From the IMG/VR virus record IMGVR_UViG_3300029554_000001: a stretch of DNA of 64,000 nucleotides. One strand, given 5' to 3'. Position 1 is the stretch's first letter. Each line of letters opens with the position of its first letter. A program made the position numbers and the translations under genes. The DNA is from a virus. Of this stretch, positions 39,505 through 58,930 are shown in pieces. The notes under the pieces were generated by a model. That model worked only from the letters and a program-made list of their open reading frames with translations, did not search any database and had not been told where the DNA came from.

Positions 39505-39511
39505 TATTTAT

Positions 39512-40237: not shown

Positions 40238-40292
40238 TTAATAAATTGACGCTCCTATTTTCTTCAAATAGGCAAATATAAATTCCTTTCAA

Positions 40293-40410: not shown

Positions 40411-40419
40411 GTTAAATAT

Positions 40420-40504: not shown

Positions 40505-40970
40505 TAATTGCATCTCAATTGGCAGATAGCGAATGCAATTTATATTAAACTGCCCGATTCAGCAAGGATGGCTAAAGCCTTGTCGGTGCTCCATATATTT
40601 GAACTCATTTTTAGTCCGTTAAGCTAAAACCCTCTCTCCCGACCGAAGAAGGTGTAGAATACAAGTTAATGGTATTCGAATGGGAAGAACACCAACTATA
40701 AGATAAGGCAACTTACCAAGGTGCAAATATGGCAAGAAAACCTTTTGGACGAAATTGGTGCCGTGCTTACGGGGATAGATAGTTGCGCATCTATCTAAAC
40801 AAAAACTCTGATTACTGCAACTAAATCGGGGTAGGTATTGAGGTTATGGGTCATGTAACCTTAAAACACAATAAGCCGAGCATACTGCTTATTGCTCCTA
40901 ACAGGTGGTGCTGAGGATGAACAACAAAAGCCAAGTTATAGAGTTCTTGTAAAAAACTCTATTGTTATTT
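40505..40970 (+). ncRNA. ORF-free ~465-nt structured region (unknown RNA)
   Basis: No ORF in any frame in the track. GC-richer than flanks. Local helices include ATTGCAT/ATGCAAT and GATAGAT/ATCTATC. Confidence 0.3.
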
Positions 40971-41047
40971 GGAAGTATAGCTCAGTTGGCTAGAGCGCTT
41001 GGCTGTTAACCAAGATGTCACAAGTTCAAGTCTTGTTATTTCCGCCA
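40971..41047 (+). tRNA. tRNA-Asn (anticodon GTT)
   Basis: GGAAGTA/TATTTCC, CTTGG-CTGTTAA-CCAAG, ACAAG-TTCAAGT-CTTGT, GCCA. Confidence 0.9.
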
Positions 41048-41048
41048 A

Positions 41049-41125
41049 AAGTGGAGGGTGTAGGTTCGAGTCCTGCCCTGCTCGTGGGAAACCCTTGCAG
41101 GAAGCTGCTAGGTACAGCGCCACTT
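41049..41125 (+). ncRNA. Circularly permuted tRNA-like domain (no ACAGCAA stem)
   Basis: Closing stem AAGTGG/CCACTT. Order: var AGGGT, T-arm GTAGG-TTCGAGT-CCTGC, capped helix CCTGC...GCAGG, AA, D-arm-like GCTG-CTAGGTA-CAGC, G. Starts 1 nt after the CCA of tRNA-Asn. Confidence 0.5.
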
Positions 41126-41181
41126 AGAATTTCTTTCACCTTATTACGCGAAATATGGGATTGAGATGTTGCTTTAGTCGG

Positions 41182-41207
41182 GTTCTTTTACAGCAGAAAA
41201 TAAGAAC
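41182..41207 (+). ncRNA. Minimal hairpin bearing a TTACAGCAG loop (possible degenerate module)
   Basis: GTTCTT-TTACAGCAGAAAAT-AAGAAC. Confidence 0.3.
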
Positions 41208-41399
41208 GCACCTGTTTAATTGGGTTTTTTAGTTCAGTAAAAACAAGAAAAACCTCGGTTGTTTAGAAATTTTCTTCTGATATTGAATGAAAACATTTAG
41301 AGAATTCTCTCATTGCAATGCCGAAAGGTAGCAAGATATGAAAACAGCTAATTGGTGAACATATTTGCTACCGAGTAGGGATAAGAGAGAATTAAATAT

Positions 41400-41475
41400 G
41401 CTTTGGTAGCTCAATTGGTAGAGCAGTGGACTGAAAATCCACGTGTAGCCAGTTCGATTCTGGCCTAAAGCACCA
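41400..41475 (+). tRNA. tRNA-Phe (anticodon GAA)
   Basis: GCTTTGG/CTAAAGC, GTGGA-CTGAAAA-TCCAC, GCCAG-TTCGATT-CTGGC, ACCA. Confidence 0.9.
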
Positions 41476-41476
41476 T

Positions 41477-41560
41477 TGCTGGCGAGTGAAACGGATATAT
41501 AAATCACGCTTGGCTCATACCCAAGTAATAGTGGGTTCGACTCCCATGCTTCAGCAACCA
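41477..41560 (+). tRNA. tRNA with CAT anticodon (Met or Ile2), irregular acceptor/T junction and oversized D-loop
   Basis: CTTGG-CTCATAC-CCAAG is a perfect anticodon arm. T-arm GTGGG-TTCGACT-CCCAT. Acceptor TGCTGGC/TTCAGCA has 2 extra nt (GC) after the T-stem. ACCA. Confidence 0.55.
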
Positions 41561-41584
41561 AAAAATAAAAGGAAGTAAATTCTA

Positions 41585-41893
41585 ATGACTATTAATTTTA
41601 AGATTTACATTTATTAGACAGCAAATAATAAAAAGTTTGTTTATAGATGTCCTCATTGTAATAAAGGGATAATGCAAGTAGCAGAAACTAAAACTGCTAA
41701 AGATGAAACTAATTTTTTATCTTGGAATTATACTTGCCCAGTTTGTAAGAAGCAGATTGTCTCTATTGAAAAAGACGGTTGTTCTTCTTTTAAAAGTGTG
41801 TTCCCTCCAATGACTCAAATTAGTGATAAAGAATTTACTGATATTAAAAAGGATGTAGGAGAGAAGGGTATTTATCTATTCTCTGAAACATAA
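41585..41893 (+). CDS. Zn-ribbon protein (1 in-frame TAG)
   Basis: ATG 41585 and TAG 41615 are in frame with the track ORF at 41672. CPHC...CPVC. Confidence 0.55.
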
Positions 41894-41896
41894 AAT

Positions 41897-41992
41897 GCTA
41901 GCGTACAGAAATTGGTTATAACTGCCTAGACTTGAAATCTTGTGTGTTGACGTTGAATCAGCCTGTGGGTTCGAATCCTACCGCTAGCGCCA
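41897..41992 (+). tRNA. tRNA-Ser (anticodon TGA), class II
   Basis: GCTAGCG/CGCTAGC, CTAGA-CTTGAAA-TCTTG, long variable arm, GTGGG-TTCGAAT-CCTAC, GCCA. Confidence 0.8.
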
Positions 41993-42010
41993 TTAAACGG
42001 AGTCTTTAAT

Positions 42011-42217
42011 ATGAAAATTTGGAATGGAAATGATTTTGAATATCTTGGTTATTTTGTAAAAAATAATAAGAAAGCCAAATATTTTGAGGTTTTTGATAAG
42101 AATGGCAATCTTCTTTTCAAACAAACTAATTGGGGTCATGCTTGTGTGACTTCAGTTAAACATAAGATTGAAGACTTTCATAAAAAATATGGACAGGAGA
42201 TTAAAAATGAACAATAA
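42011..42217 (+). CDS. Hypothetical small protein
   Basis: 68-aa ORF. Confidence 0.55.
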   Translation: MKIWNGNDFEYLGYFVKNNKKAKYFEVFDKNGNLLFKQTNWGHACVTSVKHKIEDFHKKYGQEIKNEQ

Positions 42218-42722
42218 TAATTCAATCGAAATCGAACGTAAGTTTTTAATCTCTGGTTTTCCTAAAGTCGATTTTGATGAAGTCGGAATTGTTAAAACTA
42301 TCTATATTAATATCAAATATAATTCTGATGGAAAAATTTTACAGGAAATTCGTATAAGACGTTGGTTTGAAAGTGGCAAAGGTTATCGTCCAGATGCTCT
42401 TACTTTTAAATCTGGTGGTACTTTAACTCGTACTGAAATTGAAACAAATCTTACAGATAATTCTTTGTTTGACTGTTTTAATGAACTTGGTTATAATCCT
42501 ATTGTAAAAGATTATAGAGGTCTTTACAATAATGGCTATTTAATTGAATTCAATCTTGTAGATGGCGGTACTGATACTGCTTTCTATTATGCCGAAGTTG
42601 AATTTGATTCTGAGGAAGAAGCTAACAGTTATGTTTGGCCTTTTCCTGAAGTATTTATTGAGGAAGTTACTAATAAGCCTGAATATAAGATGGCAAATTA
42701 TTGGAAACGTACTCGTGGATAA
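42207..42722 (+). CDS. CYTH-domain (triphosphate tunnel metalloenzyme) protein
   Basis: N-terminal IEIERKFLI (ExExK signature). RBS GGACAGGAG before ATG 42207. Confidence 0.7.
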   Translation: MNNNNSIEIERKFLISGFPKVDFDEVGIVKTIYINIKYNSDGKILQEIRIRRWFESGKGYRPDALTFKSGGTLTRTEIETNLTDNSLFDCFNELGYNPIVKDYRGLYNNGYLIEFNLVDGGTDTAFYYAEVEFDSEEEANSYVWPFPEVFIEEVTNKPEYKMANYWKRTRG

Positions 42723-42746
42723 GGACTATTGTTTAGTCCTTTATTT

Positions 42747-42822
42747 GCTGGATTAGCTCAGTTGGTAGAGCGATTGATTTGTAATCAATAGGTCGGGGGT
42801 TCGAATCCGTCATCCAGCTCCA
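42747..42822 (+). tRNA. tRNA-Thr (anticodon TGT)
   Basis: GCTGGAT/ATCCAGC, ATTGA-TTTGTAA-TCAAT, T-loop TTCGAAT, TCCA. Confidence 0.85.
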
Positions 42823-42857
42823 CAAATTTTCTTGTCAAATAAAAGAGGATTTTTATT

Positions 42858-43031
42858 ATGGATGAATTTTTAATCTCAGAAGAGAATATGAAAATCTTTG
42901 AGCAGATTAAAGCTTTAAAGAAAGATAAATATACCATGAAAGATGTTAATACCATTTGCGAATTGCTTGGGGTTAAATTGTTTTGGTATCAAAAGTTTGT
43001 TCTTCTTCATCTTCTTAATGATAAAAATTAA
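42858..43031 (+). CDS. Possible 57-aa protein
   Basis: RBS AAAAGAGGA before ATG 42858. Below the track length cutoff. Confidence 0.4.
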   Translation: MDEFLISEENMKIFEQIKALKKDKYTMKDVNTICELLGVKLFWYQKFVLLHLLNDKN

Positions 43032-43042
43032 ATGAGGTACAT

Positions 43043-43324
43043 ATGCCGATAAGAAACGGAAACAATGATATTTATAGTGACATTTTCTTCCAATATTTGA
43101 ATGAGAATGAAGAGAAGATGATTGATGAAGTGGCTTCTAAGCTTGAAAAACACAATCCAGTTCTTTATCCTAAAGATGTTTCAGTAGCAATTTCGAAATC
43201 CATTTATAGTGATTATAAGAAATATCTTTATGAACATGGATATACTTTTAAGAAAGAATACTTAGAAGAATACTTAGAAGAATACTTTAAAAATTTAACA
43301 GAAGAAATTCTTAAAAACTCTTGA
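43043..43324 (+). CDS. Hypothetical protein
   Basis: 93-aa ORF containing the internal repeat EEYLEEYLEEY. Confidence 0.55.
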   Translation: MPIRNGNNDIYSDIFFQYLNENEEKMIDEVASKLEKHNPVLYPKDVSVAISKSIYSDYKKYLYEHGYTFKKEYLEEYLEEYFKNLTEEILKNS

Positions 43325-43404
43325 CAAAAGAAATTGAATGTGATATACTAAATTATAGTTTCAAATCTATTATCCAGTTTTATTAAATTTTAAGTGTGAT
43401 TAAA

Positions 43405-43638
43405 ATGAGTAAACAGATTAAATTGACTCCTTTACAAAAATTAGAGTTTATCAAAATGTGGTTGGGAAAGGATTTCTTTTTTCCTAAGCAACGTGAAGAA
43501 AAACTTTTAGATTTGTTAAAGGATGAAAAAGAAATCAAATGCTCAAAAGACTATAATTCTTACTTAGCTACTTTAAAATTTCTTGAACAAGTTCTTACAG
43601 ATGCTCAAACATGGGATGAATTTGTTGAGGATGAATAA
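43405..43638 (+). CDS. Hypothetical protein
   Basis: ATG 43405 lies downstream of TTGACA..TATACT. Confidence 0.55.
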   Translation: MSKQIKLTPLQKLEFIKMWLGKDFFFPKQREEKLLDLLKDEKEIKCSKDYNSYLATLKFLEQVLTDAQTWDEFVEDE

Positions 43639-43658
43639 AAAGAAATTTTAAAAAGTAC

Positions 43659-43687
43659 TTGACAAGATGAAGAGTATATGTTATACT
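43659..43687 (+). promoter_or_regulatory. sigma70-like promoter driving the distal RNA cluster
   Basis: TTGACA, 17 nt spacer, TATACT. Confidence 0.65.
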
Positions 43688-43719
43688 TAAGATGTGGTTG
43701 AGAGATACAACCTAAAAAT

Positions 43720-43815
43720 GCGGGAGTTAAGGAGAGGCCACCTTACCACATTCCGAGTGTGGGTTAAATCCGTCAAGAACGGTGCTCGCGGGTTCGAATC
43801 CCGTCTCCCGCTCCA
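43720..43815 (+). tRNA. Class II (long variable arm) tRNA with apparent CCG anticodon
   Basis: GCGGGAG/CTCCCGC, D-arm AAGG..CCTT, CCACA-TTCCGAG-TGTGG, about 25-nt variable arm with CCGT/ACGG stem, GCGGG-TTCGAAT-CCCGT, TCCA. Confidence 0.6.
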
Positions 43816-43942
43816 TTCCTTAGTAGTTTAAAAGACGATAAACAAATTAAAATACCCTTCAGTCGGAAAGCCTCTAATGAGTATAGAATGGCACTCAAGT
43901 AGGGAGTTCTGGATGGGCGAATCGGAACCACCAGCTAAGGAA
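43816..43942 (+). ncRNA. Cloverleaf-like element closed by an 8-bp stem
   Basis: TTCCTTAG/CTAAGGAA closing stem, then TA and D-arm-like GTTT..AAAC. Shares the 13-mer AGTAGTTTAAAAG (43822-43834) with the insert of tRNA-Ile (44638-44650). Confidence 0.35.
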
Positions 43943-43950
43943 AAATATAT

Positions 43951-44110
43951 AGGGGTGTAGCCAAGCGGTAAGGCAAGGGACTTTCAAGAATTAATTCAAG
44001 TAGAATCCAGTGGATTAGTTTAAAGACTGTTTCGACGGTATATTGGTTCAAGTCCAATATTCTTGACCAGACTCCCTGACTCGAAGGTTCAAATCCTTCC
44101 ATCCCTGCCA
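43951..44110 (+). tRNA. tRNA-Gln (anticodon TTG) interrupted by a 85-nt tRNA-like insert
   Basis: AGGGGTG/CATCCCT, Gln-type D-arm GCC-AAGCGGTAA-GGC, anticodon stem AGGGA (43976-80)/TCCCT (44073-77), GAAGG-TTCAAAT-CCTTC, G73, CCA. Loop halves CTTT (43981-84) and GAC (44070-72) sum to CTTTGAC. Confidence 0.75.
43985..44069 (+). tRNA. Nested tRNA-like gene inside the tRNA-Gln anticodon loop
   Basis: Perfect acceptor CAAGAAT/ATTCTTG, TA, D-arm ATTC-AAGTA-GAAT, stem CAGT/ACTG with a 14-nt loop, T-arm ATTGG-TTCAAGT-CCAAT, then A-CCA. Confidence 0.6.
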
Positions 44111-44139
44111 TAAGTAACAATTCAAATTATCGTTTACGT

Positions 44140-44284
44140 GTAGACGCTTACAGCAAACAATAATAAAATCAAATTCTAGTAAAAAAGATATAAATTAATA
44201 TTTAAAAAAGATTTTGGGTATTGTTCCTTGCTAATTAGTTTATGATGCTTTCATGATTCTCCTTTGTTAGTATTATGCGTCTAG
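44140..44284 (+). ncRNA. ACAGCAA-stem module 6 (AT-rich ~120-nt payload)
   Basis: G-TAGACGC-TT-ACAGCAA ... GCGTCTA-G. Confidence 0.6.
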
Positions 44285-44291
44285 TTTATAA

Positions 44292-44358
44292 GTGCCGTAC
44301 CAAGGTTGGGGTCGCTCGACGGAGGGCTTAAGAAGGGGTTCGAATCCCCCACGGTGCA
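44292..44358 (+). ncRNA. 67-nt tRNA-like element (acceptor and T-arm only)
   Basis: GTGCCGT/ACGGTGC (2 G.U pairs), T-arm (A)GGGG-TTCGAAT-CCCC(C). No convincing anticodon arm. Confidence 0.35.
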
Positions 44359-44414
44359 AGATTGAATTGTTTGGAGTACTACAAACAAGATGGTAAGTTA
44401 TTGATGATTTAAAA

Positions 44415-44479
44415 GTAAACCCTTACAGCAATTTAACTACTTAATTTTTGCTTGAAAAAAGATTATGGATAGGGTTTAG
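44415..44479 (+). ncRNA. ACAGCAA-stem module 7 (65 nt)
   Basis: G-TAAACCCT-T-ACAGCAA ... AGGGTTTA-G (G>A in the 5' strand compensated by C>T in the 3' strand). U/A-stem hairpin containing the CTTGAAA string (44451-57). Confidence 0.65.
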
Positions 44480-44495
44480 ATTTGTAATGTTAAAA

Positions 44496-44585
44496 GTAGA
44501 CACTAACAGCAATTTTAAAAAGTATTCTATATATATATTAAAATGCCAAAATTTAATTGTACATATTAACTTTTAAAGTGTCTAG
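44496..44585 (+). ncRNA. ACAGCAA-stem module 8 (AT-rich payload)
   Basis: G-TAGACACT-A-ACAGCAA ... AGTGTCTA-G. Confidence 0.6.
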
Positions 44586-44595
44586 GATTTTATAT

Positions 44596-44731
44596 AGGAC
44601 GGTAGCTTAATCGGTTTAAGCCTCCGACTTATCTGAGAGTAGTTTAAAAGTAAAACTGTTAATGTAAGTGCAAGACTTGCCTTTCAGACCAAATCGGAAG
44701 ATTGTGAGTTCGAGTCTCACCCGTCCCACCA
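44596..44731 (+). tRNA. tRNA-Ile (anticodon TAT) interrupted by a 59-nt minihelix insert
   Basis: AGGACGG/CCGTCCC (A1.C72 mismatch), D-arm GCTT..AAGC, anticodon stem TCCGA (44623-27)/TCGGA (44694-98), GTGAG-TTCGAGT-CTCAC, ACCA. Loop halves CTTAT (44628-32) and AA (44692-93) sum to CTTATAA. Confidence 0.75.
44633..44691 (+). ncRNA. Nested acceptor-stem/D-arm minihelix ending in ACCA
   Basis: CTGAGAG/CTTTCAG (7 bp, one G.U), TA, GTTT-AAAAGTA-AAAC, short hairpin, then A-CCA. Confidence 0.55.
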
Positions 44732-44749
44732 TTTATAATTAAAAATAAA

Positions 44750-44819
44750 GTAGACTCTTACAGCGATTACTTAGAGACTTGTGATGTGGGATTACATATG
44801 TTTTGAAAAATGAGTCTAG
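44750..44819 (+). ncRNA. ACAGCAA-stem module 9 (loop variant ACAGCGA)
   Basis: G-TAGACTC-TT-ACAGCGA ... GAGTCTA-G with internal hairpin TGTGAT-GTGGG-ATTACA. Confidence 0.6.
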
Positions 44820-44828
44820 CTTTATTAA

Positions 44829-44905
44829 GCGCCTGTAGTCTAATTGGATAAAACCGCACTCTTCTAAAGTGTATCTTATGAGTTCGAATCTCGTCAGGCG
44901 TGCCA
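44829..44905 (+). tRNA. tRNA-Arg (anticodon TCT)
   Basis: GCGCCTG/CAGGCGT, GCACT-CTTCTAA-AGTGT, ATGAG-TTCGAAT-CTCGT, GCCA. Confidence 0.85.
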
Positions 44906-44934
44906 CTTAAGGTCATTTGACTTTATTTAACATT

Positions 44935-45005
44935 GCGGCGTAGTATAATGGTCAATGCGCACGGCTCTAACCCGTGAAATGCTCGTTCGATTCGAAGTCG
45001 CCGCT
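44935..45005 (+). tRNA. Candidate amber-suppressor tRNA (anticodon CTA)
   Basis: Perfect anticodon arm CACGG-CTCTAAC-CCGTG (44960-44976). Acceptor GCGGCG/CGCCGC, TA, D-arm GTA-TAATGGTCAA-TGC. T-loop TTCGATT with an imperfect stem GCTCG/CGAAG. No encoded CCA. Confidence 0.6.
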
Positions 45006-49399: not shown

Positions 49400-49948
49400 A
49401 TGAAACAAATTAGGAAAAATGTTTTTGAGACTAATTCTTCAAGTGTTCATTCATTGAGTATTAGTGGTAAAGATAATTATGATTATACTCAACTTAATGA
49501 TTATATTGAAGAAGATTATGGTCACAATGGTTACGGCAAGTATCTAAAATTAAATTTTGAATCTTTTGGATGGGGTTGGGACTCTGATTTAGATGAAAAT
49601 AGCGCAATAGCTAAACTTGAATATATCTTAACTGCGATAACTTGTTTCCAAGGTTATAATATTAATTGGAGCAGTAGAGAAGATAAAGAAGAAGCTATTA
49701 AAGAAGTTATGGAATCTGATGATTTCCAAAAGTTTGAAGATGATGTAAAGTATGCTCTTTCTAAACATGATATTCACATTATAGGAATTAAAATTAGTCC
49801 TGATGAAGATGGTTATGTAGACCATCAAAGTCTTGATTATTATGTTTCTGATGGGATGTATTATATTTTTGCAAGAGATGGAATTACATTAGAAGATTAT
49901 ATTTTTAATAAATGTTATAGTTTGATTATCGACAATGACAATCACTAA
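49400..49948 (+). CDS. FETNSSSxH-family protein, paralogue 1
   Basis: N-terminus MKQIRKNVFETNSSSVHSLSI, later DGYVDHQS. One of four paralogues. Confidence 0.7.
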   Translation: MKQIRKNVFETNSSSVHSLSISGKDNYDYTQLNDYIEEDYGHNGYGKYLKLNFESFGWGWDSDLDENSAIAKLEYILTAITCFQGYNINWSSREDKEEAIKEVMESDDFQKFEDDVKYALSKHDIHIIGIKISPDEDGYVDHQSLDYYVSDGMYYIFARDGITLEDYIFNKCYSLIIDNDNH

Positions 49949-49989
49949 CACAAAATAAAATAAAAGTGAAAATTTAAGGAGTATTATAA

Positions 49990-50196
49990 ATGTCTAATAA
50001 CAATAGTTGTATGTTTAAGTGCAAGAAGAAGAACTCAATTGATGGAAAGATTTATCGTGTATATCAGATTTTACCACTCCCTAGTCAGCTTGGTACTCTT
50101 GGTCTGATAGGCATTATGTATTGTGAACAGGACAAGAAGTTTGACGCTAATGATTTAAGCCAGTTTGAAATTATTGAAGAGATTTCCCTTCAGTAA
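49990..50196 (+). CDS. Hypothetical small protein
   Basis: RBS AAGGAG upstream. Confidence 0.55.
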   Translation: MSNNNSCMFKCKKKNSIDGKIYRVYQILPLPSQLGTLGLIGIMYCEQDKKFDANDLSQFEIIEEISLQ

Positions 50197-50295
50197 TTAA
50201 ATCAAAAAACTAACAAAACAATTTAATAAATACTTGACATTTACCTCTCCTTATGATATTCTCTTAATAGAAAAAAATAAGGAGAGTTGTTTTTT

Positions 50296-51090
50296 ATGAA
50301 CATTTATAATCAGTATAATCGCTTTGTTCATTTTGTCGGTGATATTCTTATTACTGACCCTTGTTATATTATCCGCGAAGACGGTAAGATGAATTACAAG
50401 ACTTATCCTAATATGGAAGATTATTATTCTAAATACAAGATTATTGGGAATGGGCATAAGGGTTATCCTACTCCTGATATGTATGAAGATGTTACTTGGG
50501 TTGACATGAAGAACCCCTGTATTTCTGCCACCGCTTCTAAAAGCGCTCTTTCTCCCGAGGAGGAACATGCTATTGCTGTAGCTTATCGTGATTGGCAGAA
50601 TGGAGAGCATACTAGTGACCCTAACATCCATAGGGTTTCTTTTTCTCCCACTTACGAAGCTGAAAACAAAGCTTACAACGAAGCTGTAACAAAGTGGGAA
50701 AAAGAACAGGAAGATGACTGGGGAAAGTGTTGCTGTGGAGGAGCCATGATGGAACTTGGTATTAAAACCTCTATTGTTTGCGACACTATTTATGGTGATT
50801 GGTCTTGCACTACTTATAATAGTTTAACTAAGAAAAAACTTGGAGAGTTCTGTGCTGATTCTGGTCAGGTTGGTATTTTCCTTATGAGCGAAGTTCTTGA
50901 ATACAACCCCAATCTTGACCTTCCCAAGCACTGTGCTACTATTATTAAAAACTTTGACGGACATATTCGTGTCAACAAGAAGAATAATGGCAAGTACACT
51001 TATGATGGCGAAGAATATGATGATATTGTTGCAGAGGTTGAAGGTGTCAGCAATACCTTGAATTTCAAAAGTGTTCAGACTGGATTTTAA
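50296..51090 (+). CDS. Hypothetical protein
   Basis: Promoter TTGACA upstream and RBS AAGGAGAG before ATG 50296. Confidence 0.65.
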   Translation: MNIYNQYNRFVHFVGDILITDPCYIIREDGKMNYKTYPNMEDYYSKYKIIGNGHKGYPTPDMYEDVTWVDMKNPCISATASKSALSPEEEHAIAVAYRDWQNGEHTSDPNIHRVSFSPTYEAENKAYNEAVTKWEKEQEDDWGKCCCGGAMMELGIKTSIVCDTIYGDWSCTTYNSLTKKKLGEFCADSGQVGIFLMSEVLEYNPNLDLPKHCATIIKNFDGHIRVNKKNNGKYTYDGEEYDDIVAEVEGVSNTLNFKSVQTGF

Positions 51091-51099
51091 GGAGATAAT

Positions 51100-51732
51100 A
51101 TGAAACAGATTAGACGTAATGTTTTTGAAACTAACAGTAGCTCAAGTCATTCTCTTGTAATTACGACTGACAATGAGCACTATACCAGAGAAGAAATTAA
51201 TAAAAATTTTTATATGACTGATGGTATCGTAAGATTGTGGGAGTCTTCTCTTGAATTTTATCGCTCTCCTTTTGACATGCTTGTGACTTTTAAGGATAAG
51301 CTGAGATATGCTATTGCATCTTCTAATGGCAATCTTGTAGACCAGTGTAGAGAACTTTGTTATAAGTATGTGGATGGATTTGTAGACTTTGAATTTGACA
51401 CCAAAGATTATGTTTGGGATTCAGAAGTTAAAGATTATGTAGAAACAGATGACCCCATTCCTAACTATGGTGGTACTGATGACTATCAAATTGAGGGATG
51501 GCTTAAGTATTATAATGTATCTCTTGAGGAATTTTTAACTAATAAGAAATATATTGTAGTTGTGGATGGAGACGAGTATTGCGTATGGTCTAATATTAAA
51601 GATTCTGGTTTGGTTGATGTAAAAAAAATTATTCACGATAGCTATGAAGAATCCGAAGCAGAATGGCGTGAGCAATATTTAGCTCGACTGGAAAAGGAGA
51701 AAAAAGATGCAGACTCCAAACATGAGGACTAA
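51100..51732 (+). CDS. FETNSSSxH-family protein, paralogue 2
   Basis: N-terminus MKQIRRNVFETNSSSSHSLVI. Confidence 0.7.
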   Translation: MKQIRRNVFETNSSSSHSLVITTDNEHYTREEINKNFYMTDGIVRLWESSLEFYRSPFDMLVTFKDKLRYAIASSNGNLVDQCRELCYKYVDGFVDFEFDTKDYVWDSEVKDYVETDDPIPNYGGTDDYQIEGWLKYYNVSLEEFLTNKKYIVVVDGDEYCVWSNIKDSGLVDVKKIIHDSYEESEAEWREQYLARLEKEKKDADSKHED

Positions 51733-52138
51733 GCACAAAATGAAGCGCTATGAATTATCTGATTATTTTCTTTCTTTGACTACAGGGGAACAAATTAGTC
51801 TCCTTACTAATACAGGGTTTAAAAAGGGGTTTTGGAGAGAACCTGAAAAGTTGAGTCATTATTGGATGACTTATCATTTTTGTCTTTTTAACTCCGAAAA
51901 AGAAAGAATTTCGTATGAATTTAGTTTTGATGTAGCGATTGACATTTATGACCTTAAATCTTGGAATGATTTTGATAATCTTGAAGTTATTGATGATGAT
52001 TTTGGTCAACCGTACTATGCTTTTTTTAGAGCTCAAGATAGCGGACATAGTTTTCCTTTTCTTGATATGATTATTAAGAAATATGAAAATCAAATGAGTA
52101 AATTGGTAGAAGCTAAAATTTTAAAAGAGGTAAATTAA
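51707..52138 (+). CDS. Hypothetical protein
   Basis: RBS AAGGAG 7 nt before ATG 51707. Confidence 0.6.
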   Translation: MQTPNMRTKHKMKRYELSDYFLSLTTGEQISLLTNTGFKKGFWREPEKLSHYWMTYHFCLFNSEKERISYEFSFDVAIDIYDLKSWNDFDNLEVIDDDFGQPYYAFFRAQDSGHSFPFLDMIIKKYENQMSKLVEAKILKEVN

Positions 52139-52576
52139 ATGAAGCAAATTCGTAAGAATGTATTTGAAACGAATTCTTCTTCTACTCATACCCTTGCCAT
52201 TTGTACCGAGGATGAGTATAAAAAATGGCAAGAAGGTAAAATGCTTTTTAACAAATGGAATGAAACTTTTATTAAAAACTCCATTAATATTACTAAGCAA
52301 GATAAAGTAGAAGCCGAAGAAAGATATAACACATATAAAGGGAAATATTATAAAGACTGGTCTGAACTTACAGAAGCAGAAAGAGACGAGTATACTTATA
52401 ATTATATTGCCCAGCAACGCAGACAGGAAAAGAGCTTTTCTTTTGAAGAGGATGGTTTGACCTATCAAGAATTTATGCAAGATTGTAGTAATGGGGGACT
52501 TGAAACCGAAACTTCTCGCTATATTTCCCCGAGTGGAGACAAGCTTGTTATTACTTGTGCTTATGGTTATAACTAA
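52139..52576 (+). CDS. FETNSSSxH-family protein, paralogue 3
   Basis: N-terminus MKQIRKNVFETNSSSTHTLAI. Confidence 0.7.
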   Translation: MKQIRKNVFETNSSSTHTLAICTEDEYKKWQEGKMLFNKWNETFIKNSINITKQDKVEAEERYNTYKGKYYKDWSELTEAERDEYTYNYIAQQRRQEKSFSFEEDGLTYQEFMQDCSNGGLETETSRYISPSGDKLVITCAYGYN

Positions 52577-52592
52577 TAGTTAAAAATATTTT

Positions 52593-52642
52593 AATAAGTC
52601 AAGGAGAATATTTTTTATTAACTCCTTGACTTATTTGTTTTT
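52593..52642 (+). terminator. 14-bp perfect hairpin terminator whose 3' arm carries the next -35
   Basis: AATAAGTCAAGGAG / CTCCTTGACTTATT followed by TGTTTTTG. Confidence 0.7.
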
Positions 52643-52654
52643 GTGCGGTATAAT
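52626..52654 (+). promoter_or_regulatory. sigma70-like promoter embedded in the terminator arm
   Basis: TTGACT, 17 nt spacer, TATAAT. Confidence 0.6.
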
Positions 52655-52680
52655 TTAATTACTCGAAAGGAGATGTAATT

Positions 52681-53079
52681 ATGCTCGAAGGAATTAATAT
52701 TATTAGTACAGAAGTAACTAAAGATGTAGACGTTTCTCTTTTTATTTTTATTTGTGGAATTGCTTGCGTTTTGATGTTTTGTTCAATCCAACTTCTAAAA
52801 GCTGGTTTTGGAATTACAAAATCTACTTCGCACAAACTCTTTAAAATTGTTTTTAACAGTTTAAATATTGTTATTTTAGGAATTTGCTTATTCTTTTCTT
52901 CTGTTATTGTAAGCAAAGCTCTTAATGATTGTTTTTTCAATCCAGTTTATACCACAAAATATACTGTAACAATTTCCGATGAAGTTAGCTACAATGAATT
53001 TACTAAAAAATATAAAGTTCTTGAATACAATGAAAAAGATAACACTTATGTAATTAGGGAGAAAGAAAATGTCAATTGA
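52681..53079 (+). CDS. Two-TM membrane protein, tandem paralogue 1
   Basis: MLEGINIISTE.., two TM helices, and C-terminal FNPVY..KY.V...D..S..F..KY......DN.Y.I.E. Confidence 0.65.
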   Translation: MLEGINIISTEVTKDVDVSLFIFICGIACVLMFCSIQLLKAGFGITKSTSHKLFKIVFNSLNIVILGICLFFSSVIVSKALNDCFFNPVYTTKYTVTISDEVSYNEFTKKYKVLEYNEKDNTYVIREKENVN

Positions 53080-53455
53080 AAATAATCCAGCAATTGAAGT
53101 ACTTAATACAGTTACAACTACAAGTAACGGAAACATGTTTATTCTTATTATGTCTGTTGTTATTGTTGTTATTGGAATTGCTGGTATATGCGTATTTATT
53201 GTAGATTGGGTTAAAAGAAGAGGGTCAATGGATGGATTTTGTGCTATTATTGTCGCAACAATTATTTTCTGCGTAATTGCAGGATTCAATGTTTATGCAA
53301 TGAAGCATCCAGTTGAAACTATTTCTTATGAAGTTAGATTTACTGACCCTGACCATTTTTCTTTAACTGATTATGAAAAACTTGAAGAAGACTATATTGT
53401 TTCCAGAAAAGGGAAAATTTACACATTAAAAGAAAGGGTTGACAAAGATGATTGA
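53069..53455 (+). CDS. Two-TM membrane protein, tandem paralogue 2
   Basis: Overlaps its neighbours; same TM and C-terminal layout. Confidence 0.65.
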   Translation: MSIENNPAIEVLNTVTTTSNGNMFILIMSVVIVVIGIAGICVFIVDWVKRRGSMDGFCAIIVATIIFCVIAGFNVYAMKHPVETISYEVRFTDPDHFSLTDYEKLEEDYIVSRKGKIYTLKERVDKDD

Positions 53456-53807
53456 TGGTGTTAATCTAATTACTACTGAAACTATTTGTATTTCTGGTGG
53501 TTTTTTAAGTAATTTAATTCCTGCTATTATTGCAGCACTAGGTTGTATTGTTGCAATTATTGTATCAATTTCTTGGGTTAAGAAAGAAGAAGCATGGGTC
53601 GCATTTTTCTTTTGTTTATCTATGGGTCTTTGTTTAGGTATTGTTTCTTTTATTTGTTTCAATGATGCCTTTAATCCAAGATATGAAGAGCGATATCTTG
53701 TTCAGTTAGACGATAAAATTTCTTCTGAGTTTATTGACAAATATGATATTGTAGAACGAAAAGATAATAATGTCTATATAATTAAAGAGAGGAATACAGA
53801 TGATTGA
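53448..53807 (+). CDS. Two-TM membrane protein, tandem paralogue 3
   Basis: MIDGVNLITTE.., ...FNPRYEERYLVQLDD....F..KY......NNVYIIKER. Confidence 0.65.
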   Translation: MIDGVNLITTETICISGGFLSNLIPAIIAALGCIVAIIVSISWVKKEEAWVAFFFCLSMGLCLGIVSFICFNDAFNPRYEERYLVQLDDKISSEFIDKYDIVERKDNNVYIIKERNTDD

Positions 53808-54153
53808 TGGTGTTGAAGTTTTAACTTCCGAAATGGTCAGAACATCTCCTGAATTTGATGAGCTAATTTTTGTTGGGATTCTTTTTATAGGTTTCGCCTT
53901 AGTTATATTTTATTGCTTTGGCTACTGTGTTAAAAACAAATTTGGTTGGTTAGCTCTTGTTAGTGCTATAGGTGTTATTTTACTTAGTTTGGTTGCTGGT
54001 AAGATGTTTAAAGATGCTTTCTTTCCAATCTATGAAGAAAGATATATGGTACAATTAAAAGAAGAAGTTTCTTTAGATTTTATAAAGAATTATGAGATTC
54101 TTGAAGATAAAGGAAATGATATCTATATTGTTCGAGAGAAAGGAAACGAATAA
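53800..54153 (+). CDS. Two-TM membrane protein, tandem paralogue 4
   Basis: MIDGVEVLTSE.., ...FFPIYEERYMVQLKE....F..NY......NDIYIVREK. Confidence 0.65.
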   Translation: MIDGVEVLTSEMVRTSPEFDELIFVGILFIGFALVIFYCFGYCVKNKFGWLALVSAIGVILLSLVAGKMFKDAFFPIYEERYMVQLKEEVSLDFIKNYEILEDKGNDIYIVREKGNE

Positions 54154-54252
54154 AAATGAAGTTTTATTGGGTTAATTTTACCTGAAAATATCTTTTTTTA
54201 GACTTGTTTTTATTTGAAAAGTTGCAAAAATAATATAAAATAGGAGAAAGTA

Positions 54253-54423
54253 ATGAAGATTTATTGTGCATATGACCACCTGAATTGTGAGTCTGCTCCA
54301 AAGTCTCAGGAAGAGATTCATGCTTGTGAATATTATGGTTCTTACCTATGTAATGCTTGCCCCTCTCGTTATGATGGTGACAAGGTAAAGAAATATATGG
54401 AGGATAATCCTCGTGAACACTAA
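54253..54423 (+). CDS. Possible 56-aa Cys-rich protein
   Basis: RBS AGGAGAAAG before ATG 54253. Codon check runs to TAA 54421. Confidence 0.45.
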   Translation: MKIYCAYDHLNCESAPKSQEEIHACEYYGSYLCNACPSRYDGDKVKKYMEDNPREH

Positions 54424-54679
54424 TGGAGTTAAACTGTATAATGAACGTGTAACGAAAGAATTCCTTAAGTATCGTAAGGTTCGTCGTATTTATTGCAGTG
54501 ATTGTGATGTTGAAATGAAGCTGGGTGAAATGAATTATACTACTTATGCTACTTATCCGCCCATTTATGAGTTTGTATGTCCCAAGTGTAATCACAAAAT
54601 GACTTCTTCTGTTATGTATCCTGTAATTGAAGAAGTTTGGGAAAATGAAGATGATATGAAAAGAGAGGTAATGGACTAA
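54413..54679 (+). CDS. Zn-ribbon protein (GTG start)
   Basis: GGAGGA lies 8 nt before GTG 54413. CSDC...CPKC. Confidence 0.55.
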   Translation: MNTNGVKLYNERVTKEFLKYRKVRRIYCSDCDVEMKLGEMNYTTYATYPPIYEFVCPKCNHKMTSSVMYPVIEEVWENEDDMKREVMD

Positions 54680-55635
54680 TGAGCAATATTAAGACTTACC
54701 AGAATGGCAACTATGTCGTGACCATCGACTTGGATAGCGGAACCAAGACTCGTGAAAATGATTTGAGCTTTTTCAAGGCTGATTTTCCAGAGTGCTGTGA
54801 TTATAAAATTACTAATAATTGCGCACAGGGTTGTAGTTTTTGCCATGAGAACAGCACTCCTAATGGTAAGCATGGCGATATTCTCGGTGAACAGGGTATC
54901 AAGGTTCTTGAAAGTTTCCATGAATACACCGAGCTTGCAATCGGAGGTGGAGACCCCCTTTCTCACCCTGATTTGATTCCGTTCCTTCGCAAGTGCAAAG
55001 AGTTGAATCTTATTCCCAATATTACGGTTCATCAGTTTGAATTTATGAAGAATCAGGAACTCATTGAACAGCTTGTTAATGAAAAGCTCATCTATGGTAT
55101 TGGTGTCTCTCTTGTTGACCCTCTTCAGCCGCAGTTTCTCAAAACTATTTCTAAGTATCCCAATCTTGTTCTCCATGTCATTAATGGTATTGTGACGATG
55201 GATACTCTTCGTACTCTTAAGAATCGTGGGCTTAAGATTCTTATTCTTGGCTACAAGACAGTTCGTCGTGGTGAAGAGTATGTTAAGGAAGATTGGGCTA
55301 AGGAACTTGTAGCAAATAAGCAGAAGGCAATCTATGACAATCTTGGTCGCATGATTGATGAAAAGTGGTTCTCTGTTATTAGTTTTGACAATCTTGCTAT
55401 TAAACAGCTTGAGCCTAAGCGTCTTATGTCTGAGGAAGATTGGAATACTATGTATATGGGTGAAGACTATGATAATATGTCTAGTGCTTCTATGTACATT
55501 GATGCAGTAGAAATGCAATTTGCTTGTAACTCTTGTGATGTAAATCATCGTTATGATGTTGGCAATAAGACTGTTACTGAAATGTATCAGTTCTTGAGGG
55601 ATTTAAAGGAGAATAGCAATGAAACAGATTCGTAA
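54679..55635 (+). CDS. Radical SAM enzyme
   Basis: CAQGCSFC (CX3CX2C) near the N-terminus, plus GGGDPL. Confidence 0.75.
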   Translation: MSNIKTYQNGNYVVTIDLDSGTKTRENDLSFFKADFPECCDYKITNNCAQGCSFCHENSTPNGKHGDILGEQGIKVLESFHEYTELAIGGGDPLSHPDLIPFLRKCKELNLIPNITVHQFEFMKNQELIEQLVNEKLIYGIGVSLVDPLQPQFLKTISKYPNLVLHVINGIVTMDTLRTLKNRGLKILILGYKTVRRGEEYVKEDWAKELVANKQKAIYDNLGRMIDEKWFSVISFDNLAIKQLEPKRLMSEEDWNTMYMGEDYDNMSSASMYIDAVEMQFACNSCDVNHRYDVGNKTVTEMYQFLRDLKENSNETDS

Positions 55636-56203
55636 GAATGTATTCGAAACTAATTCTAGCTCTTGTCATTCACTTGTTATTTCAAAAGATAATTATGGTC
55701 CAGAACATATTCCAGCTTATTTAAATTTTAATGCGGATGAAGATTATGGTTGGGACAGATGTTGTTACTCTTCCACAGAAGATAAAGCTTCTTATCTTTA
55801 CACTGCTATGCTTAATTGTGATATGTTTGCTCAAGCAAAAGATTTTAAGCGTAAACTTGAAGAAGATTTTAAGATTAAAATTTTCGTCCCCACCTATAAA
55901 AGAGAGACAAGTAAATATGGTGGTTGGGAATTTTGGGATTGTAGCGGTTCTGTAGACCATGCAGGAGAACTTGTTCCCTTTATTAATGAAATTCTTGAAG
56001 ACGATGATAAATTGAAGCGTTTCCTTTTCGACCCAAAAAGTTGTATTTATACTGGCAATGATAATGGTTGCAACCCTGATGACAATTGTTATGTTGCTGA
56101 TGTAGATGAAAATGGTGAACATTACGATTGGGACATTGAAAAAAATGTTAAACATCCTCTTTGGGATGGAGAACATTATGAATATTACTTTAAGGGGAAT
56201 TAA
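55619..56203 (+). CDS. FETNSSSxH-family protein, paralogue 4
   Basis: N-terminus MKQIRKNVFETNSSSCHSLVI, later GSVDHAGE. Overlaps the 3' end of the radical SAM gene. Confidence 0.7.
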   Translation: MKQIRKNVFETNSSSCHSLVISKDNYGPEHIPAYLNFNADEDYGWDRCCYSSTEDKASYLYTAMLNCDMFAQAKDFKRKLEEDFKIKIFVPTYKRETSKYGGWEFWDCSGSVDHAGELVPFINEILEDDDKLKRFLFDPKSCIYTGNDNGCNPDDNCYVADVDENGEHYDWDIEKNVKHPLWDGEHYEYYFKGN

Positions 56204-56205
56204 TA

Positions 56206-56580
56206 ATGAATAACACAGGAGATTATTATCCCGTTAAAGGATATTGTAATGAAAAAGGCATTTCTTGTGAATATGCTAATATTAGAGGATATTGTGGTTT
56301 AACTGCGTGCTTGAAGCATAATTCTGTTCAGTTGAATAATACATCTGATTTTAGTTTAAATTTTTCTCGCTCTGAAAAATCTAAGATGTTTATTAAACTT
56401 GAGCCAAAAGAATTTAACATGCAGAAAAATTTTGATGATACAGTTAATTTAAATTTTACTCTGCCTATTATAAATCAGGATTCTAATGAAGAAACTGGTA
56501 CTTTAAAAGTAAAAATTCCTCGTGCTAAATATGAATTCGAAAAAGGTGGAATTAAAATTTTTCTCTTAAAATCTGAGTAA
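56206..56580 (+). CDS. Hypothetical protein
   Basis: 124-aa ORF directly after paralogue 4. Confidence 0.6.
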   Translation: MNNTGDYYPVKGYCNEKGISCEYANIRGYCGLTACLKHNSVQLNNTSDFSLNFSRSEKSKMFIKLEPKEFNMQKNFDDTVNLNFTLPIINQDSNEETGTLKVKIPRAKYEFEKGGIKIFLLKSE

Positions 56581-57114: not shown

Positions 57115-57177
57115 GTTAGACTCTCACAGCAAACTACAAAAAACTTTTATTTTGGAAAAAGGACAAAAAGAGTCTAG
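57115..57177 (+). ncRNA. ACAGCAA-stem module 10, in the 5' leader of the Ro60-like gene
   Basis: GT-TAGACTCT-C-ACAGCAA (57117-57132) ... AGAGTCTA-G (57169-57177). Followed by the hairpin TCCTTT-AGA-AAAGGA (57178-57192), which includes the AAGGAG RBS. Confidence 0.65.
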
Positions 57178-57199
57178 TCCTTTAGAAAAGGAGAAAATT

Positions 57200-58930
57200 A
57201 TGTATAACTACAACAATCCTAACAAGAAGAATAACACTAAGGCTTGGGCTCCTAAGCCTGAAAAGCCTGTTACTAAGTCCAACCGAGTTAGCCGTAAGGC
57301 TTCTTTCATGGACAAGGTTGAGAATACTGCCAAGGGCTACTACACTCAGGTTGCAATTCCTTCTCTTCCTGCTGATAAGCAGTACACTTCTAATGGTGCT
57401 ATTGCCTACAAGTCCTCTGGTTCTGCTCTTCTTGATATCAATACTTCCATTACCGCTCTTCGTAGTCTTCCTGATGGTAATATTGTGAAGAAGTTCCGTG
57501 CAGCTTATTCTGAGAATCCTCGTCTCGCTATTCGTTGGCTGTTCTATGCTGGCGATATCCGTGAGGGTCAGGGTGAGCGCCGTCTCTTCCAGATTTGCCT
57601 TAAGGATATGATGAACAATGGTGGTGCTCAGATTGTGGCGAACCTGATTCCTATGATTCCTGAGTATTCTCGTTGGGATTATATCTATGTTGTCATGGAT
57701 AATCCTACTACTAAGCCTGTTGTTCGTGAACTGATTCGTAAGCAGTGGAAGGAAGATATGGCTAATATGAAGAAGGGCAAGTCCATTAGCCTTATGGCGA
57801 AGTGGCTTGATAGTGCTTCTTCTCACAGCCATGATACTCGTAAGCGTGGTCTTAAGACTATGGATATGCTCGGTCTGACTGAACGTGAGTATCGTAAGGG
57901 GCTGTCTGCTCTCCGTAAGCACCTTGATGTTGTTGAGCGTAAGATGTCTTCTCAGAATTGGCAGAGCATTAATTACGAGACTGTTCCTTCTAAGGCAAAC
58001 CTTAATTACAACAAGGCTTTCCTTCGTAATGATGAGGAGCGCCGTCGTGCCTATTTGAACGCTCTTACTAAGGGCGAGGCAAAGATTAATTCTTCCGTAT
58101 CTAATCCTTGTGACATTGTTCACAAGTATTGCGAGAATGATTGGGGTACTTCTCCTCATTCTTATGATGCCGCCCTTGAAGGCATGTGGAAGGCTCTTCC
58201 CAATCTTGTAACCGATGATAGTTCCACTATTGTTGTTGCCGATGGTTCTGGTTCTATGTGTGCTACCGTGGGTCGTACTCGTATGACTGCTCTTGAGGTT
58301 GCTAACTCTCTTGCAATTTACTTTGCAGAGCGTGCTAAGGGTGCATACAAGGGTCGTTACATTACTTTCTCTGCACGTCCTCAGATGGTTAATGTTAATC
58401 ATGACTCTTTGCGTGCAAATCTTAGAGAAGCTGCTCGTCATAGTGAGGTTGCTAATACCAACCTTGAAGCAGTATTTGACCTGATTCTTGATACTGCAAT
58501 TAAGAATCATTCTCCTCAGAGTGATTTGCCTAAGAATATTCTGATTATCAGTGATGGTGGTTGGGATTCTATGGTAAATATCCGTAATGTTAGCACTGGC
58601 AGTAATGGTTACGGTGGTTATGGTTATTGGGGTTATAACAGCACTCGTGCTACTGCTAAGGAAGCTCCTGCTTTCCTTAAGTCCATTGAGCAGAAGTACA
58701 AGAACGCTTCCTATGAGTGTCCAAAAATTTGTTTTTGGAATGTGTGCGGAAATGGTAACACTAATAATGGTCTTCCTATGACCAAGAATGACTATGGTAT
58801 CATGGTCAGCGGGTTTAGTGTTCAAACTTTGAAAATGATTCTCAGTGGCAAGACTAATCCTTGGGATGCACTTATGGAAGTGGTCTTGGATAAGCGTTAT
58901 GACAAGATTGAGGAGCTTGCTTTTAAGTAA
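57200..58930 (+). CDS. Ro60-like protein: helical N-domain (DUF2828/TROVE-like) plus vWA domain with MIDAS
   Basis: GAIAYKSSGSALLD, ENPRLAIRWLFYAGDIREGQGERRLF, MIDAS VVADGSGSM. C-terminal ICFWNV...NNGLP...YGIMVSGFSVQTLKMI parallels Ro60 LIVCGM..NGF.IADP.DRGMLDMCGFDTGALDVI. Confidence 0.65.
   Translation: MYNYNNPNKKNNTKAWAPKPEKPVTKSNRVSRKASFMDKVENTAKGYYTQVAIPSLPADKQYTSNGAIAYKSSGSALLDINTSITALRSLPDGNIVKKFRAAYSENPRLAIRWLFYAGDIREGQGERRLFQICLKDMMNNGGAQIVANLIPMIPEYSRWDYIYVVMDNPTTKPVVRELIRKQWKEDMANMKKGKSISLMAKWLDSASSHSHDTRKRGLKTMDMLGLTEREYRKGLSALRKHLDVVERKMSSQNWQSINYETVPSKANLNYNKAFLRNDEERRRAYLNALTKGEAKINSSVSNPCDIVHKYCENDWGTSPHSYDAALEGMWKALPNLVTDDSSTIVVADGSGSMCATVGRTRMTALEVANSLAIYFAERAKGAYKGRYITFSARPQMVNVNHDSLRANLREAARHSEVANTNLEAVFDLILDTAIKNHSPQSDLPKNILIISDGGWDSMVNIRNVSTGSNGYGGYGYWGYNSTRATAKEAPAFLKSIEQKYKNASYECPKICFWNVCGNGNTNNGLPMTKNDYGIMVSGFSVQTLKMILSGKTNPWDALMEVVLDKRYDKIEELAFK

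Follow-up and report, generated by a model that had tools for sequence, protein, structure and literature searches.

The window considered here, a stretch of 64,000 nucleotides (nt) from the IMG/VR virus record IMGVR_UViG_3300029554_000001, is phage-like, with 32% G+C and nearly all of its genes on one strand. Between positions 49,400 and 56,203 it carries a cluster in which four paralogous open reading frames (ORFs), whose products begin with a nearly identical peptide containing the motif E-T-N-S-S-S-x-H, accompany a single gene for a radical S-adenosylmethionine (radical SAM) enzyme. The proteins that share this motif are referred to below as ETNSSSxH proteins, and the four copies of the window as paralogues 1 to 4. 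The features that concern the family and the enzyme are the following.

49400-49948, + strand: paralogue 1, 182 amino acids (aa), subfamily A-like, with the N-terminal motif, GYVDH and the end ...IIDNDNH
49400-49456, + strand: N-terminal motif of paralogue 1, MKQIRKNVFETNSSSVHSL
51100-51732, + strand: paralogue 2, 210 aa, subfamily C, with the N-terminal motif, a DKLRYAIAS helix and VVVDGDEY
51100-51156, + strand: N-terminal motif of paralogue 2, MKQIRRNVFETNSSSSHSL
52139-52576, + strand: paralogue 3, 145 aa, subfamily B (short type)
52139-52195, + strand: N-terminal motif of paralogue 3, MKQIRKNVFETNSSSTHTL
54679-55635, + strand: radical SAM enzyme, 318 aa, phrog_16999, with C48-x3-C52-x2-C55 and an N-terminal three-stranded sheet (residues 4-26)
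55619-56203, + strand: paralogue 4, 194 aa, canonical subfamily A, its start overlapping the stop of the radical SAM gene by 17 nt
55619-55675, + strand: N-terminal motif of paralogue 4, MKQIRKNVFETNSSSCHSL

The four ORFs starting at 49400, 51100, 52139 and 55619 do begin, as an earlier sequence-only reading of this DNA had noticed, with a common peptide, MKQIR[KR]NVFETNSSSxH[ST]L, in which about 17 of the first 19 residues are identical and positions 6 (K/R), 16 (V/S/T/C) and 18 (S/T) vary. Over the first 19 codons, any two copies differ at 5-9 synonymous sites, including switches between TCN and AGY serine codons, and show only 1-3 non-synonymous differences. Since 5-9 of these 19 codons differ synonymously, the identity of the peptide is kept at the protein level, in agreement with the purifying selection first proposed, and a recent duplication, gene conversion or an RNA element is ruled out by the same differences as the source of the shared N-terminus. 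Beyond it, the four proteins are as divergent as had been stated (31-35% identical in a gapped alignment). The VDH motif shared by two of them reads GYVDH in paralogue 1 and GSVDH in paralogue 4, and the end of paralogue 1 is the counterpart of a TGNDN strand. Paralogue 2 has an orthologue in the module of L005, one of the related loci described below (E 2e-26). Paralogues 1, 2 and 4 fall in one cluster and paralogue 3 in the separate short subfamily B, which has only residues 1-27 in common with subfamily A and is usually encoded, in other phages, directly 5' of the radical SAM gene.

The family is very large. With a profile built from 57 homologues, 5,561 clusters at 50% identity were retrieved at E<=1e-3, of which 2,496 reached E<=1e-10, and the best 150 clusters are single-domain proteins of ~143-201 aa, named 'hypothetical' in every source. 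Searches with Pfam, NCBIfam and PADLOC profiles returned no match for the four paralogues or for 94 divergent members, and the match to a known housekeeping family that the sequence-only reading had named as a refutation did not appear; the sole profile matched by the paralogues is phrog_28997, of 'unknown function', which paralogue 4 matches over residues 3-150 (E 6.9e-20, counted as a full-length match) and paralogues 1-3 over their first 21-30 residues only (E 1e-3 to 1e-2). Moreover, the literature searched for the motif strings and for phage radical SAM systems holds no description of the motif or of the module.

From the fetched loci (viral contigs, metagenome assemblies and genome bins, designated by L and a number), 335 distinct members were gathered by a motif pattern that constrained neither the Arg residue nor the offset from the start; an alignment selected by profile, with no motif pattern, gives the same invariant residues. 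The general form of the peptide is M-[KR]-x-[IV]-R-x-x-[VT]-F-E-T-N-S-S-S-x-H, the motif starting 8-9 residues after Met1 in 326 of the 335; every one of the 335 has the Arg that precedes Phe by four residues. Among 94 diverse members, whose alignment columns average 10% identity, invariance is limited to R, E, T, N, S, S, S and H. Members are 100-320 aa long, and their bodies are acidic (median isoelectric point, pI, 4.4) and their first 22 residues basic (pI 9.3-10.8). In canonical subfamily A the invariant N-terminal positions are R5, E10, T11, N12, S13, S14, S15 and H17, and further invariants are found at G44-W45, Y59-L60, D113-H114, T145-G146-x-D148-N149 and the C-terminal N194, while intermediates between subfamilies A and C carry YVDH, ITxG[GN]D[EN] and a C-terminal KGN. 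The bodies of other members form small groups, more than 20 in number, that have nothing detectable in common beyond the N-terminus: hhalign comparisons of bodies alone between body types gave probabilities <1%, and in the full-length comparison of subfamilies A and B residues 1-27 alone align (E 3e-21).

The AlphaFold2 (AF2) model of paralogue 4 is confident (predicted local distance difference test, pLDDT, 91.3; predicted template modelling score, pTM, 0.87). Residues 1-14 have no regular secondary structure in it, mean pLDDT rising from 57 over residues 1-10 to 80 over residues 11-20. A Foldseek search of this model against the PDB gave no match (best E 0.64, TM <0.2), and in BFVD it matched one uncharacterised Myoviridae protein, with a 461-aa 'Radical_SAM' phage protein as a weak match only (E 0.43); the family profile found nothing significant among PDB sequences, the best being a sulfatase at E 0.28. 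An alkaline-phosphatase/sulfatase-like site was dropped, as Foldseek finds no such fold and the order of motifs is different. Other candidates were set aside without support from the fold searches: HAD, SGNH and Toprim proteins do not fit the motif order and the modelled secondary structure, and histidine phosphatases, a flavodoxin phosphate loop and pyruvoyl self-processing fit no better.

The most telling property of the family is its coupling to the radical SAM enzyme. An orthologue of the window's enzyme (35-96% identity) lies within the fetched DNA in 141 of the 163 loci fetched through the family, and only 5 of the 163 (L001, L002, L028, L029 and L108) have no orthologue although the flanks measure 5 kb or more on both sides. 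For the two IMG/VR contigs among these five, L028 and L029, a wider check found the radical SAM gene 27-30 kb away, with more family copies beside it. Conversely, 77 of 80 loci fetched through the enzyme, with ±3 kb only, hold 1-3 family copies, as did 17/17 of an earlier set. Around 46 representatives of the enzyme below 65% identity to one another, over a span of -5/+4 kb, the only conserved families are the radical SAM enzyme and the ETNSSSxH proteins (46/46 each), the next best reaching 5/46. There is one radical SAM gene per locus, accompanied by one (13 loci), two (19), three (6), four (4), five (3) or nine (1) family copies; all copies (109/109) are on the strand of the enzyme gene and the nearest lies at a median of 15 nt from it. 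The usual layout runs from subfamily A through subfamily B to the radical SAM gene, of which the window is a spread-out version with four copies. Synteny with the enzyme, whose loss in relatives had been posed as the other refuting observation, is thus kept in both directions and down to 35% identity. No fusion of a family member to the enzyme was found in ~260 loci: a 511-aa ORF of L120 that looked like one arises from a Cys-rich gene that lies upstream and is read in frame, and the remaining long ORFs are artefacts of start calling.

The largest expansion, with nine copies in one locus, is seen in L142 and L161, from Fibrobacter and Prevotella genome bins, and the bodies there belong to several unrelated groups. 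Three enzyme loci have no ETNSSSxH copy in their ±3 kb, and in two of them the ORF that immediately follows the radical SAM gene (L221, 2674-3141; L222, 3927-4412) starts with another shared peptide, MHSRIFQIE, which may be an alternative motif for client proteins of the enzyme.

The module is present in very different phages. In the cyanophage Ma-LMM01 and its relatives, gp130 is the family member and gp128, annotated as 'Fe-S oxidoreductase', the radical SAM enzyme, the intervening gp129 being unrelated to both; Lak megaphages carry it (five copies and the enzyme in Lak-A1), as do many gut and rumen phage contigs and prophage-like DNA of the cultured Firmicutes Thomasclavelia cocleata DSM 1551 and Eubacterium plexicaudatum ASF492, where its neighbours are anti-repressor, methyltransferase and tRNA-nucleotidyltransferase genes. 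In the infection transcriptome of Ma-LMM01, gp128, gp129 and gp130 all belong to class B5 ('middle'), with four successive values of 0, 0, ~10 and ~10, and a middle promoter is annotated, among the three genes, upstream of gp130 only (PMC5780444), which fits a single gp130-gp128 transcript. The same phage has been described with alpha and beta subunits of ribonucleotide reductase (PMC5780444).

The ORF at 54679-55635 is a member of the radical SAM superfamily by its cluster motif, its profile score (42.5 bits against PF04055, above the gathering score of 29.5) and its predicted fold, a partial TIM barrel. The earlier description of a CX3CX2C enzyme whose 3' end overlaps paralogue 4 holds, the overlap being 55619-55635, and an aromatic residue, F54, precedes the last Cys of the motif. 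C48, C52 and C55 are the only invariant cysteines among 38 diverse orthologues, and a C-terminal CNSC of the window's enzyme is missing from relatives such as that of L005; because only these three Cys are kept, the enzyme has no auxiliary Fe-S cluster. Its first 26 residues form, in the AF2 model (pLDDT 87), a three-stranded sheet that is among the most conserved parts of the enzyme (Y7, N9, G10, G21, T22), and its first 22 residues have a pI of 4.2, complementary in charge to the basic first 22 residues of the ETNSSSxH proteins. At least 30 radical SAM structures match the model at E<=1e-3, led by CteB (E 1.9e-8) and SuiB with its precursor (E 9e-8, TMq 0.62) and followed by AbmM, EpeE, anSMEcpe and PqqE; viperin and QueE are weaker by 3-4 orders of magnitude (E 3e-4 to 1e-3), and PflA is absent from the best 50. 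By sequence profiles the enzyme is a member of no curated family. Its NCBIfam matches are all sub-threshold and mostly concern maturases of the SPASM/twitch clade, together with MoaA, viperin and NrdG; with 19.1 bits against a cut-off of 180 for viperin_w_prok it is not a viperin, and the PADLOC pVip profile matches the cluster-binding region only (E 6.5e-5). A role as activase of NrdD was ruled out by its low NrdG score (24.3 bits, cut-off 126.1) and by the separate NrdD and NrdG-like ORFs at 12102-14208.

The interpretation tentatively preferred, held at a little less than even confidence, is that the radical SAM enzyme could act as a maturase dedicated to a diversified set of client proteins, whose N-terminal motif it would recognise and modify, enzyme and clients together forming a self-contained two-component phage module. 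The pattern of one maturase and its clients is suggested because a single radical SAM gene stands with 1-9 co-oriented, often overlapping genes that share one peptide at a fixed position and with no other conserved gene. Further points in its favour are the irregular structure of residues 1-14 in the paralogue 4 model, the complementary charges of the two N-termini, the common expression class in Ma-LMM01 and the precedent of the HXS anti-phage system (PMC13128918). In such a module, the enzyme would bind the basic N-terminal peptide, perhaps on its own acidic, conserved N-terminal sheet, and use a 5'-deoxyadenosyl radical to modify a residue within E-T-N-S-S-S-x-H; a single enzyme could in this way mature or activate every paralogue, much like QhpD or a sulfatase-maturing enzyme with its protein substrates. 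The modified loop of subfamilies A and C would then lie beside D113-H114 and G-[ND]-D-[NE] and contribute to an active or ligand-binding site, and the varied acidic bodies could provide different target specificities, plausibly for host takeover or counter-defence. That the small polar residues are so extremely invariant suggests a function for the modified loop itself, which might serve as a catalytic or binding group derived from the protein, comparable to formylglycine in sulfatases and to the cross-linked QhpC subunit. Since the enzyme has no auxiliary cluster, the chemistry cannot simply copy that of SPASM enzymes. A bolder extension, to be regarded as unlikely at present, is that the auxiliary-cluster-free enzyme might turn part of the E-T-N-S-S-S-x-H loop into an undescribed protein-derived cofactor or reactive group and so arm, in phages ranging from cyanophages to megaphages, fast-diversifying, acidic effectors of a new fold against the host.

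Between the two meanings first offered for the N-terminus, a catalytic or metal-binding motif and an element recognised by the radical SAM enzyme, the balance leans to the latter, because bodies without detectable similarity share the peptide only, at a fixed distance from Met1, and because there are 1-9 copies per enzyme whose nearest structures are peptide and protein maturases. Several observations weigh against a maturase with clients. An element with eight invariant polar residues looks more like a catalytic or ligand-binding loop than like a recognition leader, the extra invariant polar residues of subfamilies A and C suggest an active site of their own, and H17 is placed within the first core strand of the paralogue 4 model. 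On the side of the enzyme, the closest peptide and protein maturases are all SPASM or twitch enzymes and it has no auxiliary cluster; no RiPP recognition element (RRE, a PqqD-like winged helix-turn-helix, wHTH; RiPP, ribosomally synthesised and post-translationally modified peptide) was matched in it by Pfam or NCBIfam, its N-terminus being a three-stranded sheet only in the model; and the order of Foldseek matches among radical SAM enzymes says little about the type of substrate. In addition, some family copies are as distant from the enzyme gene as those of L028 and L029.

In a different explanation, unlikely though still deserving attention, the ETNSSSxH proteins would be unmodified enzymes or ligand-binding proteins themselves, working in the same pathway as the radical SAM enzyme on a small molecule, a nucleotide, DNA or tRNA. 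Jointly with the D-H and G-[ND]-D-[NE] of subfamilies A and C, the N-terminal loop would build a metal, phosphate or cofactor site. Such a site would suit the eight polar residues that never vary (R, E, T, N, S, S, S and H), as well as D113-H114, D148-N149 and G44-W45 of subfamily A, the YVDH and ITxG[GN]D[EN] of the A-C intermediates and the confident globular model of the body; several radical SAM enzymes acting on small molecules also lack an auxiliary cluster, and some relatives have nucleotide, folate and tRNA genes as neighbours, among them FolD, an adenylosuccinate-synthetase-like gene and a CCA-adding enzyme. However, a shared active site built by the body cannot be general, because subfamily B, like over 20 further body types, retains the peptide only, with no D-H or GNDN. 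Moreover, a fixed pathway would have no need of 1-9 copies per enzyme, the neighbourhood holds no conserved pathway gene, the proteins resemble no known hydrolase or transferase in fold or profile, and the model confidence of residues 1-10 is low.

Improbable to a greater degree is the proposal that the peptide is a docking element only and the paralogues are interchangeable adaptor or regulatory subunits, not substrates, that would steer the radical SAM enzyme to targets such as host proteins or nucleic acids. A single enzyme with many variable partners, complementary N-terminal charges, invariance of both the peptide and the N-terminal sheet of the enzyme, and tightly packed, often overlapping genes that suggest translational coupling would all agree with docking, but a pure docking interface rarely requires eight invariant small polar residues, partner-enzyme fusions are absent from the ~260 loci, and no target is evident. 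Finally, a targeting or processing signal that would send a variety of proteins to the virion or outside the cell, for instance by capsid targeting with cleavage after VFE, and to which the enzyme would be linked in some other manner, can be given very little credence: although the T4 internal proteins are likewise diverse acidic paralogues with a short common N-terminal peptide and V-F-E (hydrophobic-x-Glu) resembles prohead-protease sites, the radical SAM gene, and no capsid, scaffold or protease gene, is the sole conserved partner in cyanophage, Lak and gut phages, the motif is identical in phages whose virion modules are unrelated, expression in Ma-LMM01 is of the middle class, not late (PMC5780444), and the invariant NSSSxH downstream of the supposed cleavage site would be left unexplained.

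Around the conserved genes, the window contains the following further features.

50287-51090: ORF of 267 aa without family match, between paralogues 1 and 2
52681-54153: four tandem paralogous ORFs of 117-132 aa, with two hydrophobic segments each
54253-54679: two small ORFs, of 56 and 88 aa, rich in Cys and zinc-ribbon-like, directly 5' of the radical SAM gene and overlapping it
57152-58930: TROVE/Ro-like protein with a vWA domain (DUF2828 + DUF7788), just downstream of the cluster

The cluster context proposed from sequence alone survives in part. The link to the radical SAM enzyme is borne out by the coupling in both directions; the four tandem proteins with two predicted transmembrane segments are there as described, with C-terminal halves that are alike and charged (...Y.V.EK...), but they and the interleaved ORFs are conserved in close relatives only and are outside the conserved radical SAM module. 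A homologue of the 267-aa ORF occurs near the module in L081 and L085, the 56-aa Cys-rich ORF recurs beside it in relatives at just ~50% identity (L022-L027), and the TROVE/Ro-like protein, which corresponds to phrog_850 'RNA-binding protein' (E 2.5e-116), has a homologue at the equivalent relative position in L166 and L167. The ORFs of 54253-56580 are arranged head-to-tail and closely packed, and scans of the cluster for promoters and terminators gave nothing above the shuffled expectation. The closest relatives of the window are IMG/VR viral contigs of 148-220 kb with protein identities of 90-96%, another being a 123 kb contig binned as 'uncultured Clostridium sp.', and no DNA similarity to GenBank phages was found. 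Just upstream of the cluster region, 17 tRNA genes form an array at 31976-45005, all on the + strand, which includes a tRNA with anticodon CTA at 44935-45005 (labelled 'tRNA-Pyl' by ARAGORN). The NrdD gene (12102-13709), directly followed by an NrdG-like activase (13702-14208), contains two in-frame TAG codons and yet matches the NrdD profile from end to end (E 3e-143). TAG is probably a sense codon in at least some genes of this phage. Since every stop among the cluster ORFs is TAA or TGA, recoding of TAG elsewhere in the window leaves the cluster untouched.

Known anti-defence families (AcrIC5, Sequestin, Acb2/Tad1 hairpin) are found near the module in several relatives, an association only. 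The genes concerned lie a few kb from family copies or from the radical SAM gene.

L001, 4317-4523: anti-defence gene
L002, 726-1142: anti-defence gene
L002, 5153-5359: anti-defence gene
L166, 1659-2024: anti-defence gene

These neighbours suggest that the module is located in accessory or counter-defence regions. In L005, a 160 kb phage, an adenylosuccinate-synthetase-like gene (PF00709) is present at 15710-16819, 3 kb downstream of the module, and two N6/N4 methyltransferases and a Sequestin-family gene are upstream. Adenylosuccinate-synthetase-like enzymes are of the kind employed by phages for 2-aminoadenine genomes.

If the maturase-client interpretation is right, the module would represent a new, phage-specific and very widespread kind of radical SAM-dependent protein maturation, with a substrate motif new to radical SAM enzymology and, for an enzyme without auxiliary cluster, probably new chemistry. 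It would also provide a common logic for thousands of 'hypothetical' genes of gut jumbo phages, Lak megaphages and cyanophages, belonging to a family of more than 5,500 clusters at 50% identity that has yet no Pfam model, name or solved structure, and the diversified clients might form a class of effectors, for host takeover or counter-defence, that is itself new. The minimal system consists of two genes and occurs in a cultured phage, Ma-LMM01.

Among known systems, anSME/AtsB offers a close likeness, as a single radical SAM enzyme acts there on a large set of folded paralogues, maturing them at a short invariant motif, close to the N-terminus, that becomes part of the active site, and anSMEcpe is among the top structural matches of the phage enzyme. 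However, the sulfatase motif, (C/S)xPxR, is absent from the phage proteins, which have ETNSSSxH instead; the SPASM domain of anSME, with its two auxiliary clusters, is missing from the phage enzyme; sulfatases adopt the alkaline-phosphatase fold, whereas the phage proteins match no solved fold; and anSME-sulfatase systems are cellular, the module being found in phages. QhpD, the maturase of the quinohemoprotein amine dehydrogenase gamma subunit (QhpC), modifies a protein-sized substrate with an N-terminal leader and gives rise to a protein-derived catalytic feature. The likeness would be that of a radical SAM enzyme with a substrate of protein size, but QhpD is a cellular SPASM enzyme that forms Cys-Asp/Glu thioethers in a single substrate, and no sequence relationship between it and the phage enzyme was detected.

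The RiPP maturases, which provide the best structural matches of the phage enzyme, resemble the module in that multiple substrate genes may adjoin a single radical SAM gene and that, as in SuiB/SuiA, CteB/CteA, PqqE/PqqA and EpeE/EpeX, a conserved N-terminal recognition segment precedes a hypervariable remainder. Nevertheless, the phage partners are folded proteins of 100-320 aa and not short peptides, their conserved segment is far more invariant than typical leaders, and the phage enzyme has no detected RRE, SPASM or twitch cluster. The term 'leader' in the RiPP sense would therefore seem to be a poor fit for the N-terminal peptide, as the partners are predicted to be folded and, in subfamily A, the motif continues straight into the first core strand. 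NrdG and PflA are, like the phage enzyme, small radical SAM proteins without auxiliary cluster, and they act on a conserved motif of a folded protein, as the phage enzyme is proposed to do, but the ETNSSSxH motif has no conserved Gly comparable to that of the glycyl-radical RVxG. NrdG is commonly encoded by phages. The capsid-targeting sequence of T4 internal proteins is likewise a short conserved N-terminal peptide on fast-evolving, diverse phage paralogues; it occurs in T4-like phages only and goes together with the prohead core and protease, whereas the motif described here occurs in unrelated phage groups and is linked to a radical SAM enzyme.

In the HXS anti-phage system, HxsA is matured by the radical SAM enzymes HxsB/HxsC (PMC13128918), and it would share with the phage module, under the maturase reading, a radical SAM-matured protein effector in the conflict between phage and bacterium and a modified element rich in His and Ser (PMC13128918). 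The phage enzyme matches the NCBIfam HxsC profile weakly (E 3.6e-5, 22.8 bits against a cut-off of 267.9). HXS differs in acting on the bacterial side, with two radical SAM enzymes plus HxsD where the phage module has one radical SAM enzyme per locus, and in an effector with His-Xaa-Ser repeats and a peptidoglycan-binding domain where the phage proteins have a single S-x-H and no repeats. The general kind of system, a radical SAM enzyme with cognate peptide or protein substrates, is already known, HXS being a recent example from phage-bacterium conflict (PMC13128918), and what appears to be new is the motif, the fold of the clients, a minimal maturase without auxiliary cluster and the spread of the module over very different phages.

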